From contig CAWIYV010000010.1 in assembly GCA_963840455.1 (NCBI GenBank), positions 382,785-446,784 on the forward strand: a stretch of DNA of 64,000 bases. The letters are read 5' to 3'. The position numbers and the translations under genes are program-made. Of the stretch, positions 5,847 to 54,810 are shown in pieces. The DNA is from Nitrospirota bacterium (GTDB lineage Bacteria; Nitrospirota; UBA9217). The notes under the pieces are model-generated. The model was not told where the DNA came from, did not search any database, and worked only from the letters and a program-made list of their open reading frames with translations. Within the stretch, counting starts at the first letter, position 1. Every line of letters starts with the position of its first letter.

Positions 5847-6020
5847 GAACTTGTCTGGTGTCAACCTCGTAAGCTCCTTCGCTGTCAATCCCGAGACCGA
5901 TGCCGCCCTCCGGGTCGGTACCGCGCGCTGTTTTCCGTTCATAGCGATATAAATATATCACAAAAATACCGTGATGGGCAAAAAAAGTGGGTTAGCGATG
6001 GTCTGCTAACCCTTTGATTA

Positions 6021-6067
6021 CATGGTGGGCGCTGCAGGGTTTGAACCTGCGACCCCTGCCGTGTGAA
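6021..6067 (-). repeat. truncated 3' copy of tRNA-Val(CAC) (attR-like direct repeat)
   Basis: Exact 47-nt match to the 3' end (CCA end, T-arm, 3' half of the anticodon arm) of the tRNA at 11531..11605. Sequence diverges immediately beyond. Confidence 0.8.
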
Positions 6068-6343
6068 TGACCTGCTGTATGAGAAACACGTTTTCCTTAC
6101 AATGGAAAATAGTGGAAATCTAATCGCTTTGATCTATTCAAAGGAGGGAACATCTCTCCCATTTTTTTCCTATTTCTTCTGTCTACTATACAATTACTAT
6201 ACAGTCCCTCAAAAAAAATGCTTTCCGCCATGCAGAGTGGAACAGCCCCCTCCCCTCTGGTCGACGAAGACTTGGTTAAGCATGCTACCTGGGATGATCT
6301 GCATGAAAACATACGGGACAGGATTTTTCGGAATAGGTTCGTT

Positions 6344-7387: not shown

Positions 7388-7771
7388 CAGGAGAAGGTTG
7401 TCATGGCGGCAAATGACTTTTGCTGCCTTATTAACCTATCCGAAAGCACATGTCAAGCTCAATCATTTAAGCAGGGTTGATCTTCCCTGATTATTCATTG
7501 GTAGAAAACCGCTTCGTGGTGCACTGCATGCACTCTTCTCTCCGGCTTCTACCCCGGCCACTGTGATTGCCGGTCTATTTCTTCATAAATAAGCGTAGTG
7601 ACATCACGAATGATGTTCGTTATTTTCCCGGAATCTTCCCCCAGGGCAGTTCGTCAGTACTATGTGATCACCTGAAAAGGCGATTCAACGACGAGCACAA
7701 GCCTGCCGCATTGCTGGCCGGCATGAGCCTAGCATTGCAGAAGCTATGCTGAGAAGAGAAAGCGTCCGAGG

Positions 7772-10700: not shown

Positions 10701-10816
10701 AAAAGTTTTAAATAGTGTGTCCAGATGGATTCATATATAAGGCCGGCAAAACCTGAAGCGGTAAACATAAGGAAAAAAAGACGAAGACTTATATTGTTCA
10801 TGAGGTTTTTCTCCAC
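7772..10816 (-). CDS. fused MFS-type membrane domain / spermidine-synthase-like (aminopropyltransferase) protein
   Basis: 1014 aa. About 480 aa of a polytopic MFS-like membrane domain, then a PABS/spermidine-synthase-like domain (IIGWGSGLTTHTLL, IEIEPEMIKAARLF, DLIISEPSNPWVSGVASLFTKEFY), then a long C-terminal extension. Confidence 0.8.
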   Translation of the reverse strand: MEKNLMNNISLRLFFLMFTASGFAGLIYESIWTHYLKLFLGHAAYAQALVLAVFMGGMASGALICSKYSERLPNLLIGYAVVETVIGVCAIFFHPLYVHFIELTYAKFIPALSSPTAVAVFKWTAASLLILPQSILLGMTFPLMTAGLIRRFPQSSGSLVAMLYFTNSIGAAIGVLAAGFLFIGWVGLPGTLVLAGCINIMVAAIVWIEDKRSSSVQVSASIQTKTDVPGTSRGLVYKVFLLIALLTGLSSFIYEIGWIRMLSLVLGASTHAFELMLSAFITGIALGGLWIKRRIDSFDDPRRFLALVQVAMGILALATLPIYGGTFSAMAWLIRNLPKTNAGYFLFNLTSNGIALVIMLPAAFCAGMTLPLITNGLLRSGSGERSIGAVYGFNTIGSILGVFMAVHLAMPLLGLKGMIILGAGIDIALGLGLAWWAFPSWRIPAVYTIAGVVALVLPMFWLKLDPGKMASGVYRFGILPDQTKEEVLYHRDGKTATVSITKDLQNMSIKTNGKSDAGLQITGRGHSKDEETMVLAGAIGIIHRPEARTAAIIGWGSGLTTHTLLTVPNINSVDTIEIEPEMIKAARLFGPRVRLAYDDPRSHVRIEDAKSYFSFTNKQYDLIISEPSNPWVSGVASLFTKEFYSRVREYLTKDGLFVQWIHLYDIDMSLVASIMKALAPYFSDYIIYATNPYDMLIVACPVGDVQEPKISFLAIESLMNELNKVDVMGLPDINVRVLGNKSMLSPLFESYGTAANSDYEPIVDLYAVKSRFYDLTASPQFHSIEFGRLPIMHMLGKKHSDVSISPVAYSTFPKSIRIHFANMIFQYFMNDQMKWSHPYAPLRDQSRQLVMNAKQALTRKCSEDSLRQEWWMAMLHVVADFVPCWSPEQLSRILKSIETSSCSKSLSDSQRDFIELIKAVGKKDAAGMAQYSKKILVQMEQNAVDADLLEYTLSAGMLGDLAVGNIQEAGLLWRKYGPLLPAKNAQSITVQLLVTRLSRELAGYGTYFPRGEPH

Positions 10817-10873
10817 TGATACTTATTTTTTCTCATCTCAAACGATTCATTACATGAAATAGTAGTAATGACA

Positions 10874-10898
10874 CTCCCCCGGCAGGAGCCGGGGGTTT
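10874..10898 (+). repeat. 25-nt hairpin repeat (copy 1): ctcccccggcaggagccgggggttt
   Basis: Exact 25-mer also found at 50057..50081. Stem cccccggc/gccggggg with loop agga, followed by T residues. Confidence 0.7.
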
Positions 10899-10904
10899 CT
10901 TAAA

Positions 10905-11311
10905 TTACAACGTCAATTGCTGTTGCCCTTTGTCTTCCTTTTCCTGATAGGAAACATAAGCGAGAATTTCCTTTTCGTTCAGCCCGATACACCATACACA
11001 ATATGCTCGCGACCAGATGCCTTCTTTGCTTGCGTATGTTTTGTGATAAAAAGGAAATTTCGCCTTAAGCTTTTTCGCCGATTGTGACTTGATGTACTGT
11101 ACGACGTCGGCAACTGCAATTTTCCGCGGAACAACGATTACCATGTGTACATGGTCTATCCGCACACTGAGCTTGATTACCTCGATATCGGGATCAAGAT
11201 CTGGGAGATAACCAAGCGTCTTGGCCGCATACTCCTTGACACCCTTTACGAAGATCTTCCGCCGATATCTCGATATCCAGACGAGATGCTACTCTTTTTT
11301 GTAAATGCCAT
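10905..11311 (-). pseudogene. tnpA: IS200/IS605-family Y1 (HUH) transposase TnpA, apparently frameshifted near the N-terminus
   Basis: The frame from 11283 reads HLVWISRYRRKIFVKGVKEYAAKTLGYLPDLDPDIEVIKLSVRIDHVHMVIVVPRKIAV...SRAYCVWCIGLNEKEILAYVSYQE (HUH HVHM and catalytic Y region). The ATG at 11311 (MAFTKKSS) is in another frame. An in-frame TAG precedes HLVW. The shift sits at a T6 run (11295-11300). No tnpB present. Confidence 0.65.
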
Positions 11312-11530
11312 GGGCACTCTTTCGATATCTCATGCCCCATCATATCAAATACCATCTCGTCTGGATAGCCGCTAAATCACCAGACAGGGGTTTGGTATTT
11401 TATGCGGCTCAATAAAGGTTGAAGCTTGCATTACACCCGTCCCCAAACTGCACACCGCCCACCAATCGCACAATTACTGCACAAGAAACAGAAAAGGAGT
11501 CAGCATTTTCTGCTAACTCCTTGTAATTCA

Positions 11531-11605
11531 TGGTGGGCGCTGCAGGGTTTGAACCTGCGACCCCTGCCGTGTGAAGGCAGTGCTCTCCCGCTGAGCTAAG
11601 CGCCC
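11531..11605 (-). tRNA. tRNA-Val (anticodon CAC)
   Basis: Cloverleaf confirmed by hand: acceptor GGGCGCU/AGCGCCC, D-arm GCUC/GAGC, anticodon stem CUGCC/GGCAG with loop UUCACAC, T-arm GCAGG-UUCAAAC-CCUGC. CCA is encoded. Confidence 0.9.
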
Positions 11606-11761
11606 GGAAACGGTGATTATCTTACCCAGAGGGTACCTGTTAGTCAAGCGAAAACTTGGTTCTTATGGTCTACAAAGCCCGTGACGGACAGAGCTAGCAA
11701 GGAATGATCCGCCGTTATCCCCCCTGTCGATTTGATCCGTGTCAAATGCCGTTTTAAGAAA

Positions 11762-12925
11762 TTATTCCACGCTCAGAATCGCGCACTTCAGGTACTGCGA
11801 CTCCTTTGCGGCGAGCAGCATGGGGTGATCGCGGGACTGCGAGCGCATCTCCAGGAGCCGCGCCTGCCTCCCCGCTGACCAGGCCGCGTCGATCAGCATC
11901 TCCCGGAACAGCTCCTGGTCGATGTGGTGCGAGCAGGAGCAGGTGACGAGGAACCCGCCCGGTTCGAGCAGGCGCATGCCGCGCAGGTTGATCTCCTTGT
12001 ATCCCTTCAGTGCCTCGCGCACCTTCGCCCTGCTCTTGACAAAGGCAGGAGGGTCCAGGACGAGGCACCCGAACCGCTCCTTCTGCTTCTCGAGCTCCCG
12101 CAGCTTCTCGAACACGTCGCCGACCGCAAATTTCGCGGGCAGGTTGTTCAGCTCCGCGTTCGACCGTGCAAGCGTCACGGCCTTCTCCGACGAGTCGATG
12201 CCGATGACCTCTGTCGCGCCGTACCGGGCGGCGGATAGCGCCCATGCGCCCACATAGCAGAAACAGTCCAGCGTCCGCCGGCCCCGTACCAGGTCCTTGA
12301 GCGCCAGACGGTTCTCGCGCTGGTCGAAAAAGAAGCCCGTCTTCTGGCCCTCAAGCACGTCGGCCCGGTAGCGGATACCTGATTCCTCGAACTCCACCAT
12401 GCCCGATGTTTCCCCGAGAACGACCCGCGTCTCCTGTCCCAGTCCCTCGAGCGCCCGCGAGGCAGTGTCGTTCCTGAGCACGATGGTCTTCGGGCTGTAG
12501 ACCTCGCGGAGAGCGGCAAGGACCAAGTCCAACATGCCGTCGACCCCCGCGGTGAGCGACTGGACCACAAGCGTGTCTGCGTACTTGTCCACGATGAGGC
12601 CGGGAAGTCCGTCGCCCTCGCTGAACACCGCGCGGAAGGACTCGCCGAAACCGAGGTCCTTCCGCAGGTCGCGTGCTCTGCCGATCCTCCTCGTGAAGAA
12701 AGCGGCGTCCATATCCTCCTGCTTCCTGGTCAGGATGCGTACCGCGATGAGAGAGCGGGGATTCACGTATCCCCGCCCAAGGAAGTTCCCGGTAAAATCC
12801 CGGACCTCGACAGGCTCACCGGGCACGGCATCAGCGGGCAGGTCCTGGACCTCGTTGCTGAACACCCACGGATGGCCGCGCTGGACACGGCGTTCTTCTT
12901 TCTTTTTGAGCTTGATGGTTCTCAT
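11762..12925 (-). CDS. rlmI: 23S rRNA (cytosine-C5) methyltransferase RlmI family (PUA + class I SAM MTase)
   Basis: 387 aa. N-terminal PUA-like region, SAM-binding GIDSSEKA...LVLDPPAF and a C-terminal region typical of RlmI/RlmK family. Confidence 0.75.
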   Translation of the reverse strand: MRTIKLKKKEERRVQRGHPWVFSNEVQDLPADAVPGEPVEVRDFTGNFLGRGYVNPRSLIAVRILTRKQEDMDAAFFTRRIGRARDLRKDLGFGESFRAVFSEGDGLPGLIVDKYADTLVVQSLTAGVDGMLDLVLAALREVYSPKTIVLRNDTASRALEGLGQETRVVLGETSGMVEFEESGIRYRADVLEGQKTGFFFDQRENRLALKDLVRGRRTLDCFCYVGAWALSAARYGATEVIGIDSSEKAVTLARSNAELNNLPAKFAVGDVFEKLRELEKQKERFGCLVLDPPAFVKSRAKVREALKGYKEINLRGMRLLEPGGFLVTCSCSHHIDQELFREMLIDAAWSAGRQARLLEMRSQSRDHPMLLAAKESQYLKCAILSVE

Positions 12926-38730: not shown

Positions 38731-39132
38731 TTACTTCCGTTCGGCCAGGGAGACGACCTTCTGATCGGATGATTTTTTCTGGCTGGCCATCTCGCACTTG
38801 CCGTCGAAAGTCACGCCTTCTTCGATAATGAGATTCGGGGTCTTGATGTTCCCTTCGATGATGCCCGGAGCGAGGATATGCACTCTCTGGCTCGCATTGA
38901 CGTTGCCGACGATCTTCCCGCTCGAGATGATCGTCCCGATGCTGATCTCGCCCTGGAGGTGGGCCTCGTCGCCGGCGATCAAGGTGTCCTTCGAGAGGAC
39001 TTCTCCTTCCACCCTGCCGTCGACCCGGATGGTCCCCTCGAAACTGAGCACGCCCTTGAACTCGGTGCCCTTGCCGAGGAACGCGGTGATCTCCGCATGT
39101 TCCGCTGATACGCCCGAAGCTTTTTTCAACAT
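38731..39132 (-). CDS. bactofilin
   Basis: 133 aa of beta-helical bactofilin (DUF583) repeats (KGTEFKGVLSFEGTIRVDGRVEGEV...). Immediately downstream of parB. Confidence 0.8.
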   Translation of the reverse strand: MLKKASGVSAEHAEITAFLGKGTEFKGVLSFEGTIRVDGRVEGEVLSKDTLIAGDEAHLQGEISIGTIISSGKIVGNVNASQRVHILAPGIIEGNIKTPNLIIEEGVTFDGKCEMASQKKSSDQKVVSLAERK

Positions 39133-39272: not shown

Positions 39273-40118
39273 TTACCCGATCGTTTCCAGGATGCGCTCC
39301 AGCTCTTCGTTGGAATAGTACTCGATGATGATCTTCCCGCCCTTGGCCTTGGCTGCGATGCTCACCTTCGTGCCGAGGGATTTTCTCAGCCGATCCTCAA
39401 TAGCCTTGAACTCGGCTCCCGCTCGCGCCTTCTTCTCCTTCACCGGATTCTTGAGCCGGGCCGCAAGCGCCTCGGCCTCACGGACCGAGAGCGCCTTCTT
39501 CACGATCTGGTTCGCTGCGAACATCTGGTCGCGCAGCCGTTCAAGGGAAAGGAGGGCCTTGGCATGACCCATATTGAGCGTGCCCGCTGCCAGGTGCTGT
39601 TTTATCTCCTTCGGCAGTCCGAGAAGCCGCAGGAAGTTGGTGATCGTGGAGCGCTCCTTGCCCACGCGCTTTGCGAGGTCCTCCTGGGTCAGCTTGTATT
39701 CGTCTTGGAGCTGCTTGAACGCTTCCGCTGCTTCGAGCGGGTTCAGGTCCTCGCGCTGGATGTTCTCGATGAGGGCCTGCTCGATGAGCTCCCGCTTGCT
39801 GGCCTCCCGGACCAGCGCCGGGACCGTCTTAAGGCCGGCAAGTCGCGCAGCACGCCAGCGGCGCTCGCCGGCGATGAGGCCGAAGTTCGTGCCGATGCGG
39901 TGCACGATGATCGGCTGGATGACGCCCTGAATTTTGATCGACGCGGCAAGTTCCTTGAGTTTCTCGTCGTTGAACACCTTCCGGGGCTGATATTCGTTCG
40001 GGACCAGCTTGTCCAGCTCGATCTCCAGGATGCCGAGGGATTTCCGCTCTTTTTCATCAAGGGCAGAAAGGTCGGGGATCAGCGCGCCGAGCCCCTTACC
40101 GAGCGCCTGTTTTTGCAT
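39273..40118 (-). CDS. parB: chromosome partitioning protein ParB (Spo0J)
   Basis: 281 aa with the ParB N-domain GERRWRAA motif, an HTH region and a C-terminal dimerisation region. Confidence 0.92.
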   Translation of the reverse strand: MQKQALGKGLGALIPDLSALDEKERKSLGILEIELDKLVPNEYQPRKVFNDEKLKELAASIKIQGVIQPIIVHRIGTNFGLIAGERRWRAARLAGLKTVPALVREASKRELIEQALIENIQREDLNPLEAAEAFKQLQDEYKLTQEDLAKRVGKERSTITNFLRLLGLPKEIKQHLAAGTLNMGHAKALLSLERLRDQMFAANQIVKKALSVREAEALAARLKNPVKEKKARAGAEFKAIEDRLRKSLGTKVSIAAKAKGGKIIIEYYSNEELERILETIG

Positions 40119-40872
40119 GGCTCAGAACCTCCCTTGCGAGATCGAGATAGCTCTGCGCACCTTTCGAGCGTATATCATAGAGAATGACGGGTTTGCCATG
40201 GCTGGGTGCTTCGCTCAACGTCACATTCCGGTTGATCACCGTATTGTAGACCTTGCTGCCGAAATACTTGCGCACCTCGCTGGCTACCTGGTCCGCGAGA
40301 TTGTTCCGACTGTCGTACATGGTCAGGAGCACGCCTTCGACGACCAGCTCCGGGTTCAGATCCTGCTTGATGAGCTTCACGGTGTTCATGAGCGCTGACA
40401 ATCCCTCGAGTGCATAGTACTCGCACTGGACCGGGATCAGTACCCCGTCGGCCGCGGTCAGGGCGTTCACCGTCAACAGACCTAGCGATGGCGGGCAGTC
40501 TATGAAGATGTAATCGTAACTGTTTCGATACGGTTGGAGCGCCTTCTTGAGCACCCGCTCGCGGGAGATCATCTGGATAAGCTCGACCTCCACCCCGACG
40601 AGGTCGATCCGGGAAGGAACGACCTCGAGCCAGGAAAAATGCGTCGCCTTTTTAATCTCTTCAAGGGAACGCTTGCCGGTAAACAGGTCGTACGTGCTAC
40701 CGACCACGTCCTGCCGGTCGATCCCCATTCCGCTTGTGGAATTGCCCTGGGGGTCGGAGTCGATGAGCAATACCTTCTTTTCCGCTGCGGCAAGCGAAGC
40801 GGCGATGTTCACTGCGGTCGTCGTCTTGCCGACACCGCCCTTTTGATTGGCAATGGCAATGACCCTGCCCAT
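40096..40872 (-). CDS. parA: chromosome partitioning ATPase ParA (Soj)
   Basis: Deviant Walker A KGGVGKTT. 258 aa. Overlaps the parB start. Confidence 0.92.
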   Translation of the reverse strand: MGRVIAIANQKGGVGKTTTAVNIAASLAAAEKKVLLIDSDPQGNSTSGMGIDRQDVVGSTYDLFTGKRSLEEIKKATHFSWLEVVPSRIDLVGVEVELIQMISRERVLKKALQPYRNSYDYIFIDCPPSLGLLTVNALTAADGVLIPVQCEYYALEGLSALMNTVKLIKQDLNPELVVEGVLLTMYDSRNNLADQVASEVRKYFGSKVYNTVINRNVTLSEAPSHGKPVILYDIRSKGAQSYLDLAREVLSHAKTGAR

Positions 40873-41169
40873 GAAACCTCCGGCACAGCCTTTAAAAAAA
40901 CCGGGTTACTTTACCATAGGAGGAGGATAAAAGGAAGAAAAAATTCATCTTATCGCTTCGAATGGGACCAAAATGAAGAGAGGAATATTCTTAGTATTTT
41001 GAATGAATAAAGGTCAGAGAAAGGGTCGCTGAGACGTTCAGTCCTGCTTATTTGGATGAACCACGGTATCAGCTTATTGGGCGTCCTTCGTCATGATTGC
41101 GGTGTCCGCTGTGGTTAAAACAAACTGGAATTTCCATTACCTGTCGTGCGCGCAGCTCAGCGCCTCCGA

Positions 41170-41185
41170 TGTTCCACGTGGAACA
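41170..41185. promoter_or_regulatory. parS site (perfect palindrome TGTTCCACGTGGAACA)
   Basis: Matches the parS consensus tGTTNCACGTGNAACa. The left half is identical to B. subtilis parS. Abuts the stop of the Clp1-like gene. Confidence 0.7.
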
Positions 41186-42253
41186 TTACCACTGTCCCAG
41201 CTCGCTCCCTGCGGGATTGACCCGGAGCGATCCCAGAGCTATATGCCGGACCGCGGCCACATCCCGGAGCGGGGTTATGACGCGCAGGATCAGCTCTTTC
41301 AAATCCAACTCCCGGACAATGCCCAGTCCGAGGCAAAGGTTCCCGTCATCGCTTAGGCCGACCAGAAGATAGTCGAGCTCGGACCTCTTTACGACAGAGA
41401 TCTCCCTGACGCCGTACCGCTCTCTCGCCGTGTACTGCTCCTCCTCCGAGTAGTCTCCATCGGTGATCACGAACAGCCGGTCTGCTGAAAGCTCGGCATG
41501 GACCACGATGCTATTCAGGACCTTTGACAGATGGTTGATATCCCGGAACCCCAGCCGCTCCCCGGTCCCGAGTCCGGGGCCGTGAACACCCATGTCGCTC
41601 AATGCGATATCCTGGAACTCGGCGCCGCGAAAATACTCCTTAAACCTTTGCTCGCGGCCAGCCTTGCGCGCCTCACTGGTCGAGATCCGGGCGTCAGGCG
41701 AGACTGGCAGCCGCAGGATCAGCAAACCAGCCCGGTGCGAGTGCGGCGAGACCAGGTGCTCGACCTCGTTCTTCTGCTCGATGGCGACAACATAGCGCGG
41801 CGCGATCATGTCGATCTCGTGATACTTGAGCTCCCGGGCAGCACCTCCGTTCACCAGGCCGCAGGTATTGATGATGACCAAATCTGGAGCAAGGGACAGC
41901 GCCCGGTTATAGAGCTTCTGAATGGCCGTGACCGCGTCGAGGAGATGGCCGACCGGGCTTGTGTTGCCGATAAAGCCCATGACGAGCGGCGCCTTCCGCT
42001 TGAGCAGTTCACCGGCGTCCGCGTAAAGGCCGAGCGAGTAAGCCGCAGGCGGGCCGATGAACGGCTGGCCGGGATCAGCATCAATCCAGGCAACACGCCT
42101 GCCCAGCCTGCAGAAATATCCTGCAAGGTACAGGCAAAACGTGGTCTTGCCAGAACCTGGCGCGCCGATGACCATGACCGGACCGCCCTGGGCAGCGATC
42201 TCCTCTGCCGACGCCCGCCATTCAGGCGGGATATGGAATGTACTTTCTGACAT
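41186..42253 (-). CDS. Clp1-family P-loop polynucleotide kinase-like protein
   Basis: Walker A VIGAPGSGKTT in a Clp1_P-like context (FCLYLAGYFCRLGRRVAWIDADPGQPFIGPP) plus a Clp1-like C-terminal region. Start ambiguous between ATG 42253 and TTG 42286. Confidence 0.6.
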   Translation of the reverse strand: MSESTFHIPPEWRASAEEIAAQGGPVMVIGAPGSGKTTFCLYLAGYFCRLGRRVAWIDADPGQPFIGPPAAYSLGLYADAGELLKRKAPLVMGFIGNTSPVGHLLDAVTAIQKLYNRALSLAPDLVIINTCGLVNGGAARELKYHEIDMIAPRYVVAIEQKNEVEHLVSPHSHRAGLLILRLPVSPDARISTSEARKAGREQRFKEYFRGAEFQDIALSDMGVHGPGLGTGERLGFRDINHLSKVLNSIVVHAELSADRLFVITDGDYSEEEQYTARERYGVREISVVKRSELDYLLVGLSDDGNLCLGLGIVRELDLKELILRVITPLRDVAAVRHIALGSLRVNPAGSELGQW

Positions 42254-42341
42254 GTGCGTATTCGGAATCCGGAATCCCGGGACCAAAAGAAAATCTTGTG
42301 CCTTGGTCGCTCTTCTGACTCCTGACTCCAGTTATATTAAT

Positions 42342-42357
42342 TGTTCCACGTGGAACA
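42342..42357. promoter_or_regulatory. parS site (second identical copy, TGTTCCACGTGGAACA)
   Basis: Identical 16-mer (18-mer with flanks) to 41170..41185. Lies between the rsmG stop and the Clp1-like gene start. Confidence 0.7.
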
Positions 42358-43002
42358 TCAGTCCTTCTTCTGAAACACCCAGAGTGCGCGGGGGTCGCCG
42401 GAGCCCGGGAGGATTATTTCGTGCTGCGCCTTGACCAGCATGCCTTGCTCCGCAACCGTATCATCGCTGACCGTTTCGGCAGGTCCCCTGCTCAGAATCA
42501 TGAGCCCGCCCGGCTTCAGGAAGAGAGATCCCTCCTTGAGAGCAGTTCCCATGTCTGCAAAGGCCCGGGCCGTTACGACGTTATACCTCGCATGATGCTC
42601 CGGGAGGAGTGCGTCTGTCCTAGCATCGAGGACCTCCACACCTTCAAGCCGGAGGGTCCTGATGATATGCCGGAGAAAGGTCCCTTTCTTCCGGACCGAC
42701 TCCACCATGATCACCGAAAGGGCAGGAGCAGCGATCTTGATGGGCAGGGCCGGGAAGCCTGCACCGGAACCCATGTCGAGCAGCGTCATGCCCGGCCTTG
42801 GTTTGAAGCCCCTCAGATAGGAGAAAGAATCGATGAAGTGCTTGGTGACGATCTCTCGCCCATCGCGGATGGCGGTCAGATTGAACTTCCGGTTCCACTT
42901 TTCGAGCTCAACAAGGTAGACCATGCATGCATCAGCCTGCTCGTCGGTCAGGCCGAGCCCGAACGCGGCTGCTCCAGCAATGAGGGTCCTCCGGAGCGTC
43001 AT
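42358..43002 (-). CDS. rsmG: 16S rRNA (guanine527-N7)-methyltransferase
   Basis: 214 aa GidB family with SAM motif LLDMGSGAGFP. Start overlaps the mnmG stop. Confidence 0.88.
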   Translation of the reverse strand: MTLRRTLIAGAAAFGLGLTDEQADACMVYLVELEKWNRKFNLTAIRDGREIVTKHFIDSFSYLRGFKPRPGMTLLDMGSGAGFPALPIKIAAPALSVIMVESVRKKGTFLRHIIRTLRLEGVEVLDARTDALLPEHHARYNVVTARAFADMGTALKEGSLFLKPGGLMILSRGPAETVSDDTVAEQGMLVKAQHEIILPGSGDPRALWVFQKKD

Positions 43003-44882
43003 CCTGCTGCCTTTCCCCGCTTTCGCTTCTCCAGGGCGACCATGAGCAGCGAAATGGCCGCCGGCGTAATCCCGGAGATACGCGAGGCCTGGCCAAGCGA
43101 GACAGGCCTTACCTGTTTGAGCTTCTGCTTAACTTCCGAACCGAGCCCGGTGATGGCCTCGTAGTCCAGGTCAGGGGGAATGGCCTTCTGCTCAAGCCCT
43201 GCATAGCGCTTCACCTGGTTCATCTGGCGCTCGATGTATCCTTCGTACTTGACCTGGATCTCCACCTGCTCTGCTGCATCAGGCTTGACCGGAGCAGGCG
43301 GCGGGCTGATCTTTTCAATGTCCCCGTAGCTGAGCTCGGGCCGCTTAAGCAACTGCTCCAGCGACGCCTCTGCCGAAAGTGGCGATGAGCTCCTGCGCTG
43401 GAGGTCCGCATTGATCTGCGGGGACGGCTTGATCAATGTCCGCTTGAGCCTGCCGAGTTCCTGCCCCACAGATTCCTTCTTCTCGAGATACTGATGATAG
43501 ACCTCATCGGACACGAGCTTGATCTCCCTGCCGATGTCCCGAAGCCTCATATCGGCGTTGTCCTCCCGAAGGATAAGCCGATACTCCGCACGGGAAGTGA
43601 ACATTCGGTACGGCTCTTCCGTTCCGCGCGTCACAAGATCGTCGATCATCACGCCGATATAGGCCTGCGATCTTGCGAGTACGAGCGGTTCCCTTTTTTG
43701 TACTTTCAGGCCTGCATTGATGCCCGCCATCAGGCCCTGTGCCGCCGCTTCTTCGTATCCCGATGTGCCGTTGATCTGGCCGGCAAAGTAAAGACCTTCG
43801 ATGAGTTTCGTCTCTAGGGTATGCTTGACCTGTGTCGGCGGTGCGTAATCATACTCGATCGCGTAGGCAGGCCGCATAATCTCGACATCTTCCAGTCCCG
43901 TTATCGAGCGGTAGAGCTTTGTCTGCACGTCGACCGGCAGGCTGGTAGAAACACCATTGGCGTAATACTCCTCCGTTTCGAGGCCCTCAGGTTCCAGGAA
44001 AACCTGATGCCTCTCCCTCTCAGAGAAGCGCATGACTTTATCTTCGATTGATGGACAGTACCTCGGCCCTATTCCTTTTATCACACCAGCATATAGTGGG
44101 GACTGATGAAGATTATTTCTTATAATTTCATGTGTAAGTGGGTTGGTATATGTTAAATAGCAGGGTAATTGAGGTAATGGATGGCTATTTTCAGTGAACG
44201 AAAAGATCGGCGCAGGTTCGTCGCCTGGTTGGATCTTCATTTTTCTGAAGTCAATCGAGCGTCCGTTGAGCCGGGCAGGCGTTCCGGTCTTCAGCCTGCC
44301 GAGCTCAAAGCCGAGCTGACTCAGGTTGTCCGACAATCCCACAGACGGGAACTCTCCCGCTCTCCCTGAAGGATAATGTGACAGTCCAATGTGGATCAGC
44401 CCCTTCAGGAATGTACCGGTCGTGATGATCACTGCAGATGACCGATATTGGACGCCGATGTTCGTCTCTACGCCTTCGACGCGGCCTCCTTCTACGATGA
44501 GCTTTTCCACCTGTCCCTGTTTCACATCGAGACCCTGCTGCTTCTCGAGCGTTTCCTTCATCGCTATGCGGTACCGTTGTTTGTCCGCCTGCGCGCGCGT
44601 ACCCCGCACTGCCGGCCCCTTGCTCTTGTTCAGGACGCGGAACTGGATGCCTGTGCGATCGATGCACTTCGCCATCTCTCCGCCCAGCGCGTCGATCTCT
44701 TTCACCAGATGGCCCTTGGCAAGGCCACCGATGGCGGGATTGCAGGACATCTGTGCGATGGTGTCCAGGTTCATCGTGAGCATGAGCGTGGAACAGCCCA
44801 TGCGCGCCGACGCCAGTGCTGCCTCACACCCCGCATGCCCGGCGCCTATGACGATGACATCATATCTGTCCTGGTAAGACAT
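42999..44882 (-). CDS. mnmG: tRNA uridine 5-carboxymethylaminomethyl modification enzyme MnmG (GidA)
   Basis: 627 aa with FAD-binding N-terminus YDVIVIGAGHAGCEAA. Confidence 0.92.
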   Translation of the reverse strand: MSYQDRYDVIVIGAGHAGCEAALASARMGCSTLMLTMNLDTIAQMSCNPAIGGLAKGHLVKEIDALGGEMAKCIDRTGIQFRVLNKSKGPAVRGTRAQADKQRYRIAMKETLEKQQGLDVKQGQVEKLIVEGGRVEGVETNIGVQYRSSAVIITTGTFLKGLIHIGLSHYPSGRAGEFPSVGLSDNLSQLGFELGRLKTGTPARLNGRSIDFRKMKIQPGDEPAPIFSFTENSHPLPQLPCYLTYTNPLTHEIIRNNLHQSPLYAGVIKGIGPRYCPSIEDKVMRFSERERHQVFLEPEGLETEEYYANGVSTSLPVDVQTKLYRSITGLEDVEIMRPAYAIEYDYAPPTQVKHTLETKLIEGLYFAGQINGTSGYEEAAAQGLMAGINAGLKVQKREPLVLARSQAYIGVMIDDLVTRGTEEPYRMFTSRAEYRLILREDNADMRLRDIGREIKLVSDEVYHQYLEKKESVGQELGRLKRTLIKPSPQINADLQRRSSSPLSAEASLEQLLKRPELSYGDIEKISPPPAPVKPDAAEQVEIQVKYEGYIERQMNQVKRYAGLEQKAIPPDLDYEAITGLGSEVKQKLKQVRPVSLGQASRISGITPAAISLLMVALEKRKRGKAAG

Positions 44883-44915: not shown

Positions 44916-46286
44916 TCACTTGCCGATGCAAAAATCATTGAATATCCTCTCCAGGATATCGTCGGTGTATGTCGCGCCGATGATCATGCCAAGGTGATCA
45001 AGCGCGTCGCGCAAATCAAGGGCGATAAGCTCGGGCGACAAACTCACTCCCGCTGTCTCGAGCGCCCGCTCTACTGCAGCCCGCGTCAGCTCCAACTCGC
45101 GCCGGTGGCGCTCGTTTACCGCCCAGCCGTGTTCAGCAACAACAGTCCCGTCCTTGGTGACCATGCCGGCAATCATTTCCCGGAGCGCGTCCAGTCCCGC
45201 GCCGCTCGCGCACGAAACCTCGACCTTCTGAGCTGCATCATTGATCGGCCCGATCCTGCGCGGCAGGTCCACCTTGTTGATCACGATGATCCTGTTCTTG
45301 CCGCTGACCTCCCGCAGGACCCGCTTGTCCCCATCGTGCAGGGGCACTGATCCATCGAGCACGGTGATCGCGATGTCCGCATCTTCAATGGCCGCGAGGC
45401 TCCTCTTTACTCCCTCCGTCTCCACCATGTCATGAGTGTCCCGAATCCCCGCTGTATCAATGATCCTGACCATCACGCCCGCGATGTTCAGGCTTTCCTC
45501 AATCACATCCCGCGTCGTGCCAGGGATGGCAGTGACGATGGCCCGGTCCTGCCGGAGCAGCGCGTTCATGAGCGACGATTTGCCGACATTCGGCCTTCCC
45601 ACGATTGTCGCCGCCGCGCCCTCCCGCAGGATCCTTCCGAACGTGTGGCTCCTCAGAAGCTGGTCAACATCCTCCAGAGCGCGCTGCAAAGCGTCGCGCA
45701 GCGTCCCTCCCGTTGGCGTCTCGATGTCCTCGTCGGGAAAATCGACCCCCGCCTCCACTCCGGCAAGAATGCCGACGATCTGTTCCCGCACCGTATCGAT
45801 CCGCTGTGAAAGCCCGCCCTTCAGCTGCTCATTCGCCGCGCGCAGGCTCAGCTCCGTCCGGGCCCGTATGAGGTCCATCACCGCCTCGGCCTGCACCAGG
45901 TCGATCCTTCCGTTCATGAAGGCCCGCTTCGTGAACTCCCCCGGCTCTGCCTGGCGCGCTCCCGCCGCGTTCAATAGGCGGACCGTGCGCCAGAGCGGGG
46001 CAAGGCCTCCGTGGCAGTTGACCTCCACAACGTCCTCACGGGTGTACGTGGCTGGAGCGCGCATGACCGAAAGGAGCACCTCATCGACCGTGTCGCCGTC
46101 CTCAGGGTCAACGATGTGGCCGTAGTGGATCCGGTGGCTCTTCGCAGCGCGGATATCCCCGCCCTGCTTCGGCCTGAAGAGACGTGCCGCGATATCAATG
46201 GCATCCCTCCCGCTCACGCGGATGATGCCGATGCCCCCTTCGCCGACCGGCGTCGAGACTGCACAGATGGTATCCTGTTCAGACAT
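44916..46286 (-). CDS. mnmE: tRNA modification GTPase MnmE (TrmE)
   Basis: 456 aa with the G domain GRPNVGKSSLMNAL and the C-terminal CIGK motif. Confidence 0.92.
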   Translation of the reverse strand: MSEQDTICAVSTPVGEGGIGIIRVSGRDAIDIAARLFRPKQGGDIRAAKSHRIHYGHIVDPEDGDTVDEVLLSVMRAPATYTREDVVEVNCHGGLAPLWRTVRLLNAAGARQAEPGEFTKRAFMNGRIDLVQAEAVMDLIRARTELSLRAANEQLKGGLSQRIDTVREQIVGILAGVEAGVDFPDEDIETPTGGTLRDALQRALEDVDQLLRSHTFGRILREGAAATIVGRPNVGKSSLMNALLRQDRAIVTAIPGTTRDVIEESLNIAGVMVRIIDTAGIRDTHDMVETEGVKRSLAAIEDADIAITVLDGSVPLHDGDKRVLREVSGKNRIIVINKVDLPRRIGPINDAAQKVEVSCASGAGLDALREMIAGMVTKDGTVVAEHGWAVNERHRRELELTRAAVERALETAGVSLSPELIALDLRDALDHLGMIIGATYTDDILERIFNDFCIGK

Positions 46287-49955: not shown

Positions 49956-50056
49956 TCCGTAGCATTTATGTGATTATGCATGAACCATTATCGTTCTTTT
50001 CCCGCCGATGTCTGTGCTCCTGAAATTCGGTGTTCTGCTGGCTTCTGAAACGACCC

Positions 50057-50081
50057 TCCCCCGGCAGGAGCCGGGGGTTTT
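50057..50081 (+). repeat. 25-nt hairpin repeat (copy 2), terminator-like, downstream of the NUDIX gene
   Basis: ctcccccggcaggagccgggggttt, identical to 10874..10898 and followed by ttct. Confidence 0.7.
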
Positions 50082-50186
50082 CTGCGGCTCAATAATCTTG
50101 GAGAAAATTATACGGGGTAAGATGATGTAGTCGTTCATGTTGTCACCACAACAACCACAACGGTCGACATGTCCGATCAAAAACAC

Positions 50187-50762
50187 TCATCGCTTACCGC
50201 CGGTGATCCACCAGTCACCTTTATCACTGAACCACCATAACGATGAATCTGTTTCTAGGATGGTCCTCGCGAGCTCTTTCGCGCTTTCGGTCTGGAGCCT
50301 CTTCATCGAGAAACCAAGCCATTCGTCAGCATACTTGTTCCCGAGATCCTTGTACTCCTTGAGTGCGAGGATCATTTCCAGCTGGTCTGCATCCTTTGCC
50401 AATCGTGCTTCTTCGGTCATTCCCTCCTCATATTCACTGATCAGTCCCTGGATCTCGTTGCCGAATGGAAGCGTCTCTACAAGGTCCTTAACAGCCTTTT
50501 TTTCATCCGCAGTGACATATTTCTTGTTAACATAATTAAGATCACCAGTCCTCGCTTCCGGCAGGTCATGGAAAAGACACATCTTGATCAACCTGTCAAC
50601 ATTGATCCCCGTTGCCGATTGTCCGAGTGCATATCCAATATATGTCGTTCTGAAAATGTGTTCTGCGACCGATTCTGCTCCGGTCCCGAGGAATTGAAAA
50701 CCGCTTCGTGGCGTGCGCTTCAGCATGCCTGCTTCGAACAAAAAGTTTGCGATATTTTTCAT
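50187..50762 (-). CDS. HD-domain phosphohydrolase (YfbR-like 5'-deoxynucleotidase family)
   Basis: HD motif (AEHIFRT...LFHDLPEARTGD). Confidence 0.72.
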   Translation of the reverse strand: MKNIANFLFEAGMLKRTPRSGFQFLGTGAESVAEHIFRTTYIGYALGQSATGINVDRLIKMCLFHDLPEARTGDLNYVNKKYVTADEKKAVKDLVETLPFGNEIQGLISEYEEGMTEEARLAKDADQLEMILALKEYKDLGNKYADEWLGFSMKRLQTESAKELARTILETDSSLWWFSDKGDWWITGGKR

Positions 50763-50858
50763 GGGATCTCTTTGTGGTATTATCGCAATAGCGATTCAGC
50801 TGGCATCCGGTGCTTTCTTCCGGGTTGTCCTGCTGATCAGTACCCGCGTGACCTGTGC

Positions 50859-51068
50859 TTACAATACCGTTATCATCCTTCCCTCATATTCCACAATCTG
50901 ACCCTTGCGGATCTTGCTCCTTTTTCTCAACTCCACAATTCCATCAACCTTTACAAGACCTTCTGCAATTGCTGTTTTTGCGGCACCACCCGTGGAACAG
51001 AGACCCTTGACCTTCAAAAGATCGTGCAGTTCTATGAACTTCTGATCCGTTATCTCGAATACTTCCAT
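50859..51068 (-). CDS. RNA-binding S4-domain protein (YbcJ-like)
   Basis: 69 aa with the S4 fold signature (KTAIAEGLVKVDG...KGQIVEYEG). Confidence 0.7.
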   Translation of the reverse strand: MEVFEITDQKFIELHDLLKVKGLCSTGGAAKTAIAEGLVKVDGIVELRKRSKIRKGQIVEYEGRMITVL

Positions 51069-51540
51069 ATTTCATCCTTCCCGGATTTTCCTTTAGACCG
51101 CCCCCGCAGCTTTTTCAATCGTATTGTTATGACGCTTTCAGAATAAACACGAGCTCTTTGTTCTCCACAATCTCTTCGGTAAATATATTATCAGTGATCA
51201 AGAGAAAGAAAGATACCACGCTGGTGACAGAAAGCCAATGAATTTTTTATTCCAGTATGTTTTTTTTCGATTGAAAATGATGACGCGGAAAATGTGTTCT
51301 CTATAAGATTATTATTACTATACTATATAAATAAAATTAGTAGTAGTAGTAGTAGGTCGTGTTGAAATGTTAGGATGAAACGCAACGATAGGAAAAGGAA
51401 TGAAAATTCTTGAAGGATAAGGCTGATGACATCGGAACCATGCTGATGGGATTTGTGTGGAAGAAAAAGCGGATAAAGGAATCCACAGGGTTGTGAGTAC
51501 GGAATCAACAGGGATGCGTTGAAAAGATGGTAAGTCCTTG

Positions 51541-51894
51541 TTATCCTGGAGGCCACGAAAAAGCTCGTCCCGATAACAAGTGAAGATGGATATGAAAGAC
51601 CGTCTGTCCGGCATTACGGCCGTTGTTGATGACCATCCGATAGCCACCATTATTGAGCCCGCGCTTTTCTCCAAGCGTTTGCGCAACGAAGAACAAATGC
51701 CCGATGAGCTCGCGGTCTACGTGTTTAATACTGTGAATGTCCTGGATATGCTTTTTCGGCACGATCAGAATATGGATCGGCGCCTGAGGGTTGATATCCT
51801 CGAATGCGACGGCATGCTCGTCTTCGTAGACCAGTTTGGCGGGCACCTTTTTTTCGATGATCTTGCAGAAGATGCAGTTTGGGTCGTGACCCAT
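51541..51894 (-). CDS. HIT-family (histidine triad) protein
   Basis: CIFCKII...HIHLHLL histidine triad. Start taken at ATG 51894 to avoid overlap with hisI. Confidence 0.8.
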   Translation of the reverse strand: MGHDPNCIFCKIIEKKVPAKLVYEDEHAVAFEDINPQAPIHILIVPKKHIQDIHSIKHVDRELIGHLFFVAQTLGEKRGLNNGGYRMVINNGRNAGQTVFHIHLHLLSGRAFSWPPG

Positions 51895-51905
51895 TTTACG
51901 TCCCC

Positions 51906-52232
51906 CTATTCCCGTGCAAAGCTTCGGAAGAAACAGCTCTTCTCTCCCGTGTGGCATGCTGGCCCCGTCTGGTCCACTTTGATGAGCAACGTGTCTAGGT
52001 CGCAGTCATACAGGATGTCCTTCACCTTCTGGACATGGCCGGACGTCTCCCCTTTTTGCCAGAACTTCTGCCGCGAACGGCTCCAAAACCAGGTGAATCC
52101 CGTTTCTACGGTTTTTTTTACAGACGCAGCGTTCATGTAGGCAACCATGAGCACGTCACCGCTTTTCCAGTCCTGGATTACAGCGGGAATCAGGCCTTTT
52201 TCATCGTACTTGAGGTCTGCCGGAATTTTCAT
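51906..52232 (-). CDS. hisI: phosphoribosyl-AMP cyclohydrolase
   Basis: 108 aa, GLIPAVIQD...[17 protein letters not shown]...CDLDTLL...CHTGEKSCF. Confidence 0.85.
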
Positions 52233-52341
52233 GCCGGTCTTTTATCATAAATGCAGTGAAATGTCCAGTGGAAGCAACAAAAAACCGGTCTCGCATGGTA
52301 GTACGAGACCGGTCATCAAAACTCTTCAGGACGTTCTTTTT

Positions 52342-52815
52342 TTAAATAAATAGGTTGACCTGGGAATCTGCGGCAGCATCCAGCCACATTGCGGCGCCGC
52401 CGAATTCAACGCCATCGATGATGTCCGTTTGCTTGACACCCATGACATCCATGGTCATCTGGCAGGCGATGAGCTTGACGCCGCTTTCCTTCGCCATGTC
52501 GAGGAGTTGCCCGATAGTGGCGACGCCGTGTTTTTTGAACATGGACTTCATCATGGCTGTTGCCATGGCCTCCATTCCGGGAAGCGAAGAAATAAGAGTC
52601 GGGATGGGTACCGGCATTGGCATTGCGGGATTCCCGAGCGGCGAGACCTTGAGGCTGTCGGCCTTCCCTTTCTTGATAATGTCGAGTCCGTAGAATGTGA
52701 AGAAGATTGTTACATCCAAGTCCATCGCAGCGGCAGTGGTTGCGAGAATGAGTGGTGGATAGGCCATGTCAAGCGATCCCTTGGACGCAATGATGGTCAT
52801 TTTTTTCTTTGCCAT
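52342..52815 (-). CDS. DsrE/DsrF-like family protein
   Basis: 157 aa DsrE-fold protein immediately downstream of tusA. Confidence 0.65.
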   Translation of the reverse strand: MAKKKMTIIASKGSLDMAYPPLILATTAAAMDLDVTIFFTFYGLDIIKKGKADSLKVSPLGNPAMPMPVPIPTLISSLPGMEAMATAMMKSMFKKHGVATIGQLLDMAKESGVKLIACQMTMDVMGVKQTDIIDGVEFGGAAMWLDAAADSQVNLFI

Positions 52816-52828
52816 GGTGATAAGCCCC

Positions 52829-53071
52829 CTATGTCGTTTTCTTGATATAGAACGTGAACGTCCCCGAGCCTTCTTCGACCTTCAGGATCTCATTACCGGT
52901 CCTTTTGGCCCACGACGCCATATCGTTCTTTGATCCGGGGTCCGTGGTCTCGACCTTCAAGACCTGGTCTTTGGAAAGTCCTTCGATGGTTTTCTTGGTC
53001 TTTAAGATCGGGAGAGGACAGCTCATCCCTTTTGCATCGAGCAACTGGTCAAATTTGATGTCTGCTGACAT
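52829..53071 (-). CDS. tusA: TusA-family sulfurtransferase
   Basis: 80 aa with the conserved CPLP motif (KGMSCPLPILKTKK). Confidence 0.82.
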   Translation of the reverse strand: MSADIKFDQLLDAKGMSCPLPILKTKKTIEGLSKDQVLKVETTDPGSKNDMASWAKRTGNEILKVEEGSGTFTFYIKKTT

Positions 53072-53475
53072 ATAGCTACCCCCTTCTTGTCATAAGATGA
53101 TAAAAATATTCCTGTGCAACAAGTGTTTTATTATAGCCGCCAATAGTTTCAAAGTCAAGCAATTTTGCATGAATTGTTTGTAATGACGATGCAAACTTCC
53201 GTATCCGGTAAGCATGAAAAGAAAAATACCTTGCCAGAGATTAGTCGTTCTGGTATAGTTCCGCCTCTCTCATTGCATTGAATTATAGAGTCAGCAAGAA
53301 CCATGCTTGGACTGGTTTTTCACGCGCTTGTGAAAAGCAGCAATCATAGGGCCGGAAAAAGCGGATAGATGACATCCCCGCAGCCAAATAACTATTTAAT
53401 AATACAAACGTTTTTGGCTTATTAACAGGTGTGGATAAGCATGTTTGTAACCACCAGCTTTTTTTGAGGTAACGT
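53072..53475. promoter_or_regulatory. AT-rich dnaA upstream region / candidate oriC, with a perfect DnaA box at 53430..53438
   Basis: TGTGGATAA (reverse complement of TTATCCACA) 38 nt upstream of the dnaA ATG. Weaker box-like 9-mers (TGTGAAAAG, GCGGATAGA) also present. The region is much more AT-rich than its flanks, and gene orientation switches here. Confidence 0.5.
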
Positions 53476-54810
53476 ATGGATTTGGCAGGGGTTTGGGAAG
53501 AGATCCTTTTCCTGATAGAAAACAAGATGTCCCGTCAGGGCTATGATACGTGGTTTGCTCAGTCAAGGCTCGTTTCTTTCGATGGCCAGAAGATAGTCAT
53601 TCAGGTCCCGAGCAAGTTCCACCGTGACTGGATCCGGGAACACCATCATGACGTCCTTAGTGATGTCATCAGGGAAGTGACCAAGAAGGACACCATCGAG
53701 ATAGATTTCTTCGTTGAGCCCCAGGAGCCTCCAAAAAAAGCCGCCAAAACCTCCAAGGACGAAAAGAGAGAGGACCGACAGCAAAAGACCAGTCTTCTTC
53801 ATGATAGAAAATACACCTTTAACTCTTTTGTTGTTGGCCCAAGCAACCAGTTCGCCCACGCTTCGGCAAAAGCCGTAGCAGAAGCACCCGGCAGAGCATA
53901 TAATCCGCTTTTCATATACAGCGGGGTAGGGCTTGGCAAAACCCACCTGGTCAACGCCATTGGCCATTTCGTCCAGAGCAAGAATCCTCGTGCAAGAGCA
54001 GCCTATCTCTCTTCCGAACAGTTCACGAATGAACTGATCAGCCACTTGAGCCACAAAACGATGGATGCGTTCCGCATGAAATACCGGAATATGGATATCC
54101 TGATCATTGATGATATTCAGTTCATGGCCGGAAAAGAGCGGACTCAAGAGGAGTTCTTTCATACCTTCAACACGCTGTATGAAGCGCAGAAGCAAATCGT
54201 GCTCACGAGCGACCGCCAGCCGAAGGAGATCCCCGACATCGAGGAGCGCCTTCGTTCTCGTTTCGAAGCCGGTCTTATTGCCGATATTCAGCCTCCTGAC
54301 CTTGAGACGCGCATCGCGATCCTGAAGAAGAAGGCGGACCTCCAGAATATCCGGCTTCCCGATGATGTCGCGGCATATCTTGCCACAATCCTCAGGAACA
54401 ACATCCGGGAACTGGAAGGGGGACTTATGAGGCTCGGTGCGATTGCGTCCCTCACGAACACCGAGATCACTGTTGACCTCGCCAAGGCCGAAATGAAGCA
54501 TTTGGTCGACCTACGGGAAAAGGTGATCACGAACGAGCTCATCCAGAAGCTGGTCGCAGAGTCGTTCGGCGTGAAGCCCATAGAACTTAAGTCGAAACGG
54601 CGCACGCGAACGGTCGTCCTGCCACGCCAGGTGGCCATGTATCTCTGCAGGCATCTGGCCGGTTCGTCGCTTCCGGAGATAGGCCAGTTCTTCGGAGGAA
54701 AGGACCACAGCACGGTGATCCATTCCTGCAACACCATCGAGGAAAAGAAGGAAAAAGACCCCGAGCTCAAGGCCCGGATCGAAGCGCTTACAAAGCAGCT
54801 AAAATCTTGA
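53476..54810 (+). CDS. dnaA: chromosomal replication initiator protein DnaA
   Basis: 444 aa with the AAA+ motif GVGLGKTHL and the C-terminal DNA-binding domain (PRQVAMYLCR...). Confidence 0.95.
   Translation: MDLAGVWEEILFLIENKMSRQGYDTWFAQSRLVSFDGQKIVIQVPSKFHRDWIREHHHDVLSDVIREVTKKDTIEIDFFVEPQEPPKKAAKTSKDEKREDRQQKTSLLHDRKYTFNSFVVGPSNQFAHASAKAVAEAPGRAYNPLFIYSGVGLGKTHLVNAIGHFVQSKNPRARAAYLSSEQFTNELISHLSHKTMDAFRMKYRNMDILIIDDIQFMAGKERTQEEFFHTFNTLYEAQKQIVLTSDRQPKEIPDIEERLRSRFEAGLIADIQPPDLETRIAILKKKADLQNIRLPDDVAAYLATILRNNIRELEGGLMRLGAIASLTNTEITVDLAKAEMKHLVDLREKVITNELIQKLVAESFGVKPIELKSKRRTRTVVLPRQVAMYLCRHLAGSSLPEIGQFFGGKDHSTVIHSCNTIEEKKEKDPELKARIEALTKQLKS

Follow-up and report, generated by a model that had tools for sequence, protein, structure and literature searches.

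The interval between rsmG and parA in a Nitrospirota bacterium, contained in a 64,000-nucleotide stretch of its genome (hereafter the window), carries two parS sites and, between them, a gene for a Clp1-family P-loop protein related to polynucleotide kinases. On balance, the arrangement probably reflects an ordinary origin-proximal ParABS centromere with two parS and a lineage-specific polynucleotide 5'-kinase gene that share an address, the position of the gene being incidental. The conserved trait is the presence of two parS within the rsmG-parA interval, rather than the presence of parS around the clp1-like gene. A dedicated arrangement is argued against because the placement of parS varies among relatives and an unrelated gene is flanked in the same way. 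A sequence-only reading of the window had suggested either that ParB regulates the gene or that an insertion brought parS into the locus; neither interpretation is supported. The locus is laid out as follows.

44916..46286, minus strand: mnmE (trmE), with Pfam TrmE_N, MnmE_helical and MMR_HSR1 domains
42999..44882, minus strand: mnmG (gidA), Pfam GIDA, E 4e-175
42358..43002, minus strand: rsmG (gidB), 16S rRNA methyltransferase, Pfam GidB, E 5e-36; stop codon 42358-42360
42342..42357, no strand: parS site 1, TGTTCCACGTGGAACA, exact match; 88 bp upstream of the clp1-like ATG
41186..42253, minus strand: Clp1-family P-loop polynucleotide-kinase-like gene, 355 residues; ATG 42253, TAA 41188-41186
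41170..41185, no strand: parS site 2, TGTTCCACGTGGAACA, exact match; 297 bp upstream of the parA start
40873..40946, minus strand: conserved block abutting the 5' side of parA, with invariant columns in a nine-locus alignment
40096..40872, minus strand: parA (Soj-type ATPase), Pfam AAA_31, CbiA and ParA
39273..40118, minus strand: parB, with ParB_N (containing GERRWRA), HTH_ParB and ParB_C domains; 23-bp overlap with parA
38731..39132, minus strand: bactofilin gene directly 3' of parB, Pfam Bactofilin, E 1e-26

All genes of the region lie on the minus strand, the first 4 bp of rsmG are also the last 4 bp of mnmG, and purL also lies downstream, past the bactofilin gene. The neighbors are those described from the sequence alone, in which a single extra gene was seen to interrupt the mnmG-rsmG-parA-parB block.

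The 64 kb contain exactly two copies of TGTTCCACGTGGAACA, a perfect palindrome of 16 bp, at 41170-41185 and 42342-42357, and allowing up to three mismatches yields no further match in the window (the chance expectation of the relaxed search is 0.27). Read on the minus strand, the copy at 42342-42357 begins one base past the rsmG stop codon, and the copy at 41170-41185 begins one base past the clp1-like stop codon (41186-41188). Both the count and the abutment of the two stop codons had been noticed in the sequence-only reading, and both hold. The two palindromes fit the parS consensus TGTTNCACGTGNAACA and are found in the company expected of a ParABS system: the sites are proximal to the origin, a parB encoding a GERRWRA box and a helix-turn-helix domain lies 1 kb away, and parA is present. 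The dnaA-dnaN-gyrB genes are located at 53.5-58.6 kb (dnaA at 53476) and the cumulative GC skew reaches its minimum at ~52-54 kb; the pair of sites is thus ~11-12 kb from dnaA and the likely origin. No direct or inverted repeat around the sites extends past 17-18 nt. The possibility that the parS hairpins act as terminators was ruled out by their 6-bp stem and by the lack of a T-tract downstream on the transcribed strand.

The survey of parS in relatives covers 42 non-identical loci with the whole rsmG-parA interval, and sites were called with up to two mismatches, usually none or one, at the outermost base. Exactly two parS are present in 40 of these loci and three in the other two, all within the rsmG-parA interval, and no parS is detected over 264,745 bp of their flanks. 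In the gap between rsmG and clp1, parS is the sole conserved element in an alignment of 10 loci; likewise, nothing but parS is conserved in the nine-locus alignment over the distal part of the clp1-parA gap. The sites are considered real and under selection because two of them are kept in relatives while the gaps diverge, with none in the flanks. Judged from these comparisons, the palindromes of the window are genuine, selectively maintained parS that form the chromosomal centromere of the lineage, and ParB is predicted to bind them. Their identification as parS, first proposed from the window alone, is borne out by their retention beside parA and parB in 42 of 42 loci and by their distance from dnaA.

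The position of the sites relative to the clp1-like gene is more variable than their number. One parS lies on each side of the gene in 33 of the 42 loci, both lie downstream in seven, and one upstream site is combined with two downstream sites in two. A site upstream of the gene is therefore found in 35 of the 42 non-identical complete loci, and a site in the clp1-parA gap in 53 of the 53 loci in which that gap is complete. In one locus (L055), no parS is adjacent to the clp1-like gene. Eight loci of one subclade carry a 1.7-kb gene for a hybrid-cluster protein, hcp (Pfam Prismane, E 5e-171), between clp1 and parA; these are L039 (6414-8129), L042 (2344-4107), L053 (6468-8249), L055 (6964-8787), L059 (6518-8206) and L076 (6290-7975), together with L049 and L064. 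In six of the eight (L039, L042, L049, L059, L064, and L076), hcp is flanked by parS on either side. Genes can apparently enter the rsmG-parA interval without loss of its parS.

The gap between rsmG and clp1 is always short (42-419 bp, median 164, in 69 loci), and the clp1-parA gap ranges from 96 to 3146 bp across loci. In the alignment of 10 loci, the rsmG-clp1 gap contains no conserved promoter-like or Shine-Dalgarno element. Because of this tight linkage to rsmG and the lack of conserved signals of its own, clp1 is probably expressed together with mnmG and rsmG, as the final gene of their unit, with parA, parB and the bactofilin gene forming a separate one. The strongly conserved block at 40873-40946, ~75 bp in length and directly adjoining parA on its upstream side, consists of a T-rich stretch, TATGGTAAAGT, and then GGAGG ahead of the ATG; TATGGTAAAGT is an extended -10-like sequence, with TAAAGT at about 40913-40908. 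From its sequence, the block is likely the parAB promoter and ribosome-binding site, and it lies ~220-300 bp from the nearest parS with no overlap. A scan of 40700-42500 with sigma-70 and terminator consensus sequences detected no promoter and no intergenic terminator, and it did not call the conserved parA block either. The leader of clp1 in the window contains a short tandem, GGAGTCAG-GAGTCAG, at 42296-42316 on the minus strand, and a similar CAGGAGTCAGGAGT is present in locus L070.

Such an arrangement raises the question of functional coupling, an unlikely explanation but the one that survives best among the alternatives. ParB bound to the flanking parS, or sliding away from them, would control clp1, for instance by blocking read-through from rsmG or by silencing the gene locally, or the kinase would serve as an accessory factor of the origin or centromere. 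Similarly doubtful is the notion that the kinase is a component or client of the centromere, either through ParB-gated expression or through action on 5'-OH ends at the origin or centromere together with ParAB and bactofilin. Coupling is consistent with the location of the clp1-like gene between the sole two parS of 64 kb, with the clade-wide constancy of this position, with upstream as well as downstream parS in 35 of 42 loci, and with the presence of parS in the probable read-through path from rsmG to clp1, where no conserved promoter is found. A precedent comes from mycobacteria, in which a parS overlapping the gidB promoter has been proposed to be regulatory (PMC2346475). However, the upstream site is missing from seven of the 42 loci, L055 lacks any site next to clp1, and the unrelated hcp gene is flanked by parS in its subclade.

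The distribution of the family beyond this arrangement argues in the same direction. Locus L013, on a contig of an 'uncultured Nitrospiraceae' metagenome-assembled genome (MAG), encodes a protein of 84% identity and retains mnmG-rsmG-parS-clp1-parS intact, but no parA or parB is present in the 5 kb downstream of clp1 and parS. Small hypothetical, MvhD-like and toxin-like open reading frames (ORFs) occupy positions 7065-12039, where parAB would be expected; the cause in L013 could be mis-assembly, rearrangement of the region or insertion of an island. Homologs that share 28-44% identity are present in Thermodesulfobacteriota, Chloroflexota, Armatimonadota and Acidimicrobiia and on unassigned contigs, and in the loci examined none has parA, parB, rsmG or parS within about 6 kb. 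The nearest outgroup (P0121, 44% identity) lies on a 1.6-kb contig, and its upstream ORF is not rsmG. Only one clade shows the par association, and this speaks against a functional link across the family. The neighbors of the distant homologs are heterogeneous. In three loci from Chloroflexota-type MAGs, the Clp1-like gene is immediately downstream of a gene for an HD-domain (HD_5) hydrolase (L006, 1711-2628), an endonuclease-IV-type AP endonuclease (L008, 5122-5982) or an AlkZ-related DNA glycosylase (L009, 5055-5936), a weak hint that parts of the bacterial Clp1 family act in nucleic-acid (DNA or RNA end) repair. The literature searched contains no link between Clp1 and ParB or parS, and the presence of a Clp1-family gene in an rsmG-parA centromere interval is not described in it.

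The second component of the shared address is the protein itself. The maximal ORF, 41186-42286, starts with TTG, and the ATG at 42253 gives a product of 355 residues; this ATG is almost certainly the true start, because hundreds of homologous sequences are 355 residues long and begin with MSE or MS. The product contains the Clp1-type P-loop peptide recognized in the sequence-only reading, and Pfam CLP1_P (PF16575) matches residues 30-210 over positions 1-188 of its 188-position profile with 117.3 bits (cut-off 26.6; E 9.4e-34). The closest solved relatives by sequence are human CLP1 (8hmy, E 7e-15) and Caenorhabditis elegans Clp1. The AlphaFold (AF2) model, built from 40 diverse family members, has a predicted local distance difference test score (pLDDT) of 93.8 and a predicted template modeling score (pTM) of 0.90. 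In a Foldseek search of the PDB with this model, every one of the best 23 matches is a Clp1, Grc3 or Nol9 structure (E between 1e-18 and 9e-11, alignments of 342-434 columns, query template modeling score (TMq) 0.44-0.62). The protein is a member of the Clp1/Grc3/Nol9 family. The C-terminal domain had also been called Clp1-like, a claim that stands at the level of fold but not of sequence: NOL9_C matches it with E 8e-4, below the cut-off, and the domain is counted as Clp1-type in the model because the Foldseek alignments run over ~350 columns or more (~350-366). The N-terminus is short, with ~25 residues and one helix before the P-loop strand, and the N-terminal domain of the eukaryotic type is absent.

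The catalytic motifs, as defined by Saito et al. (2019; PMC6777427), are largely retained. Walker A, GxxxxGK[S/T], is found as G30-APGS-G35-K36-T37, of which G30, G35 and K36 are shared by all 40 representatives and by 63 of 63 clade members. Walker B, [D/E]hhQ, is found as D60-P-G-Q63, which aligns to D-V-G-Q of human CLP1; D60, G62, and Q63 do not vary in the alignment of 40 representatives, and 61-62 of 63 clade members have them. In the lid motif, R196 and R200 line up with residues 1 and 5 of RRECRDER in human CLP1, are invariant in the 40 representatives and occur in 62-63 of 63 clade members; the spacing of these arginines is RxxxR here, as opposed to RxxxxR in the published shorthand. 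The clasp, [T/S/L]xGW, is incomplete, as T130-C-G132-L133 keeps the threonine and the glycine and has leucine in place of the tryptophan, the residue that contacts RNA in the motif definition (PMC6777427). Since the protein belongs to the family by both profile and motifs, and Thermus scotoductus Clp1 is active (PMC6777427), its activity by analogy is most likely the transfer of the gamma-phosphate of a nucleoside triphosphate to 5'-OH ends, those of RNA better than those of DNA.

A different assignment, that the protein is no polynucleotide kinase but a SIMIBI-class NTPase, such as a regulator of ParA/MinD-like or GTPase-like type with the Clp1 fold, appears slightly less probable than functional coupling. 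It could appeal to the weak, P-loop-level matches to CbiA/ParA, MeaB, SRP54/FtsY and GPN proteins, to the leucine at the clasp position, and to the historical annotation of bacterial Clp1 members as GTPases (PMC6777427). Yet the family shows no variation in the DxGQ motif specific to Clp1, in the TxG backbone of the clasp or in the lid arginines, and structural matches along the full length are confined to Clp1, Grc3 and Nol9; the FtsY and SRP-type SIMIBI NTPases that follow in the Foldseek search are ~10^6-fold weaker and cover the P-loop core only. The sole bacterial member to have been assayed is a kinase (PMC6777427). Searches of NCBIfam yield no family-level match to the protein, only P-loop noise, and PADLOC assigns it to no defense system, with matches limited to the P-loop level (mad8, E 2e-6 over 50 residues; GajB, E > 1e-3).

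The homolog search covered 1.84 billion cluster representatives and recovered 2,265 relatives. The near family forms one 50%-identity cluster whose next relative is only 44% identical. Close homologs (64-100% identity, 355 residues) are numerous in metagenomes from wetland, soil, sediment, and groundwater, and all of the named ones come from Nitrospirota MAGs, in which they are labeled 'Clp1/GlmU family protein'. A profile scan of genome contigs with an eight-sequence alignment detected at least nine loci, one of them close. The order mnmG-rsmG-clp1-parA-parB-bactofilin is kept in ~75 close metagenomic or MAG loci. Pairwise ratios of nonsynonymous to synonymous substitution (dN/dS) are 0.06-0.13 for the clp1-like gene, 0.05-0.12 for parB and somewhat lower for parA and mnmG; parA is 81-100% identical in relatives, and all listed matches to ParB have at least 80% identity and fall inside the clade. 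The clp1-like gene is a fixed, vertically inherited and selectively maintained gene of one uncultured Nitrospirota lineage.

This pattern of inheritance bears on the least probable explanation, a recent horizontal insertion in which a mobile cassette brought one or both parS into the rsmG-parA junction. The patchy bacterial distribution of Clp1, for which Saito et al. considered horizontal transfer (PMC6777427), the sharp separation of the near family from other homologs, and the entry of hcp into the same interval in one subclade are compatible with such an event, but it is dismissed as very unlikely because synteny is conserved, selection is purifying (dN/dS about 0.1), the GC content of the gene (0.57) resembles that of its neighbors and no repeat extends past 17-18 nt. 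No ORF for a recombinase, integrase or transposase lies between rsmG and parA, and none of the signs of a mobile element or genomic island (terminal repeats, a recombinase, odd composition, patchy presence) is found. The sequence of the parS is the consensus of the lineage itself, and the arrangement of the sites can differ. The idea of an insertion that carried parS accordingly finds no footing in a gene conserved vertically over 64-100% identity. The gene is present in all ~75 related loci with a divergence that tracks its neighbors, which places any acquisition far back in time, at the clade's base.

The bactofilin gene is likewise syntenic across the clade, with 70-100% identity, and nearly all loci long enough to include its position carry it (for example, L001 9178-9576 and L002 9246-9641). 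Scaffolds of bactofilin and ParABS have been described in Myxococcus, and the conserved parA-parB-bactofilin unit recalls them; it is perhaps the more interesting segregation-related feature here.

Several observations weigh against the reading of a shared address. The simple bracket is the majority state, in 33 of 42 loci, and sites occur on both sides of the gene in 35 of 42. In many loci, parS starts one base after the clp1 stop codon, a placement that may not be due to chance alone. A functional link would likewise predict the stable, clade-wide position of clp1 at the centromere. With regard to the kinase, 60 of 63 clade members have leucine at the position of the clasp tryptophan, and the wider family has leucine, phenylalanine, methionine, tryptophan or tyrosine there; judging from this substitution, substrate binding may differ from that of canonical Clp1, in which the tryptophan stacks on a base of the substrate.

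The current evidence nevertheless favors positional coincidence over coupling. In the shared-address account, the rsmG-parA interval is the centromere of the lineage, and ParB, encoded 1 kb away, would load at the two parS and, with ParA, segregate the origin region. The same interval also houses the gene for a short-form Clp1-family kinase, with kinase and C-terminal domains, that may function as an end-healing or processing enzyme. The clp1-like gene would be transcribed at the end of the unit that begins with mnmG and rsmG, and parAB and the bactofilin gene from their own promoter-like block. ParB clamps from the two sites would cover the clp1-like gene, as they would any bacterial gene located no more than a few kilobases from parS. 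The bracketing would then arise because the two parS occupy the intergenic gaps of the rsmG-parA interval, which is where the clp1-like gene happens to be.

An extra gene in this position of an otherwise conserved block has a parallel in Bacillus subtilis, in which noc is lodged between gidB and soj. Noc is a paralog of ParB with a link to chromosome biology; the Nitrospirota gene encodes an unrelated P-loop kinase, and that link is known for Noc only. The mycobacterial centromere is the closer likeness. In mycobacteria, the jag-gidB-parA-parB region contains exactly two parS, which lie about 0.8 kb from each other (PMC2346475), and in both lineages the TGTTNCACGTGNAACA palindrome occurs twice, ~1 kb apart, near the origin and on either side of one gene of the gidB-parA-parB block. 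The flanked gene is gidB in mycobacteria and an extra, lineage-specific Clp1-like gene in Nitrospirota, where, in comparison with the mycobacterial sites, both sites of the window are intergenic and such sites usually abut stop codons.

Among Clp1 proteins, bacterial members are encoded in about 0.9% of species with a patchy distribution, for which horizontal transfer has been considered (PMC6777427). The sequence-only reading was right that they are rare and poorly characterized, as T. scotoductus Ts-Clp1, which phosphorylates 5'-OH single-stranded RNA and, less well, single-stranded DNA, is the only bacterial Clp1 to have been assayed (PMC6777427). Kinase activity has been shown for Ts-Clp1 and for Ph-Clp1 of Pyrococcus horikoshii (PMC6777427). 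The Nitrospirota protein resembles Ts-Clp1 in its short N-terminus and Clp1_P kinase domain as well as in its Walker A, Walker B and lid-type motifs, and by analogy the same activity is expected. In contrast with Ts-Clp1, which is reported to lack a conserved C-terminal domain (PMC6777427), it has a Clp1-type C-terminal domain by fold, and unlike other bacterial Clp1 it belongs to a tight Nitrospirota clade that is at most 44% identical to anything else. It shares the fold of the kinase and C-terminal domains with Ph-Clp1 and with eukaryotic Clp1, Grc3 and Nol9 (Foldseek E 1e-18 to 1e-11, TM about 0.6), and its catalytic motifs are common to the archaeal and eukaryotic proteins, at only 16-19% identity over the structural alignments. 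Eukaryotic Clp1 is reported to need its N-terminal domain for activity, and the bacterial and archaeal form is short (PMC6777427). The Nitrospirota protein differs from eukaryotic Clp1, Grc3 and Nol9 in that it lacks the N-terminal beta-sandwich domain and has leucine for the clasp tryptophan, and it has no known partners (Pcf11, TSEN, Las1) and no pathway of intron-containing tRNA or ITS2.

Bacterial Clp1-family kinases have no known physiological role. The clade described here is an abundant, conserved and housekeeping-like example, with a single-copy gene at the locus that experiences strong purifying selection and keeps a fixed address beside tRNA- and rRNA-modification genes; it is therefore a good candidate for learning the role of such kinases in bacteria. 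The protein adds a strongly conserved member to a known, little-understood family of bacterial enzymes, and its chromosomal setting is undescribed and probably incidental. If clp1 were in fact regulated by ParB or engaged in origin biology, this would be a new link that ties an RNA or DNA end-kinase to the cycle of replication and segregation. For segregation, the clade is a natural experiment in which the number of parS (two) and the interval are conserved and the exact placement of the sites and the enclosed genes vary.

The remaining observations concern the rest of the window. Rfam detects three tRNAs only over the window and no match at the clp1-parS locus. The likely origin region, ~50000-54000, has a GC content of 0.465-0.48 and the GC-skew minimum, with dnaA-dnaN-gyrB-gyrA immediately to its right. 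DnaA boxes are not enriched in the window, and the only exact box, at 53430-53438, is a short distance upstream of dnaA. No rnpA/yidC/jag block of the usual kind is seen in the origin region of the window, and genes for pgi, NUDIX, HD_3 and DsrE-like proteins are present between mnmE and dnaA. A second low-GC segment, ~6000-12000 (0.44-0.50 compared with ~0.60), ends near a tRNA-Val (11531-11605) and carries a beta-lactamase-family ORF (6344-7387) and a 1014-residue ORF with a spermidine-synthase domain (7772-10816); this segment may be a genomic island.

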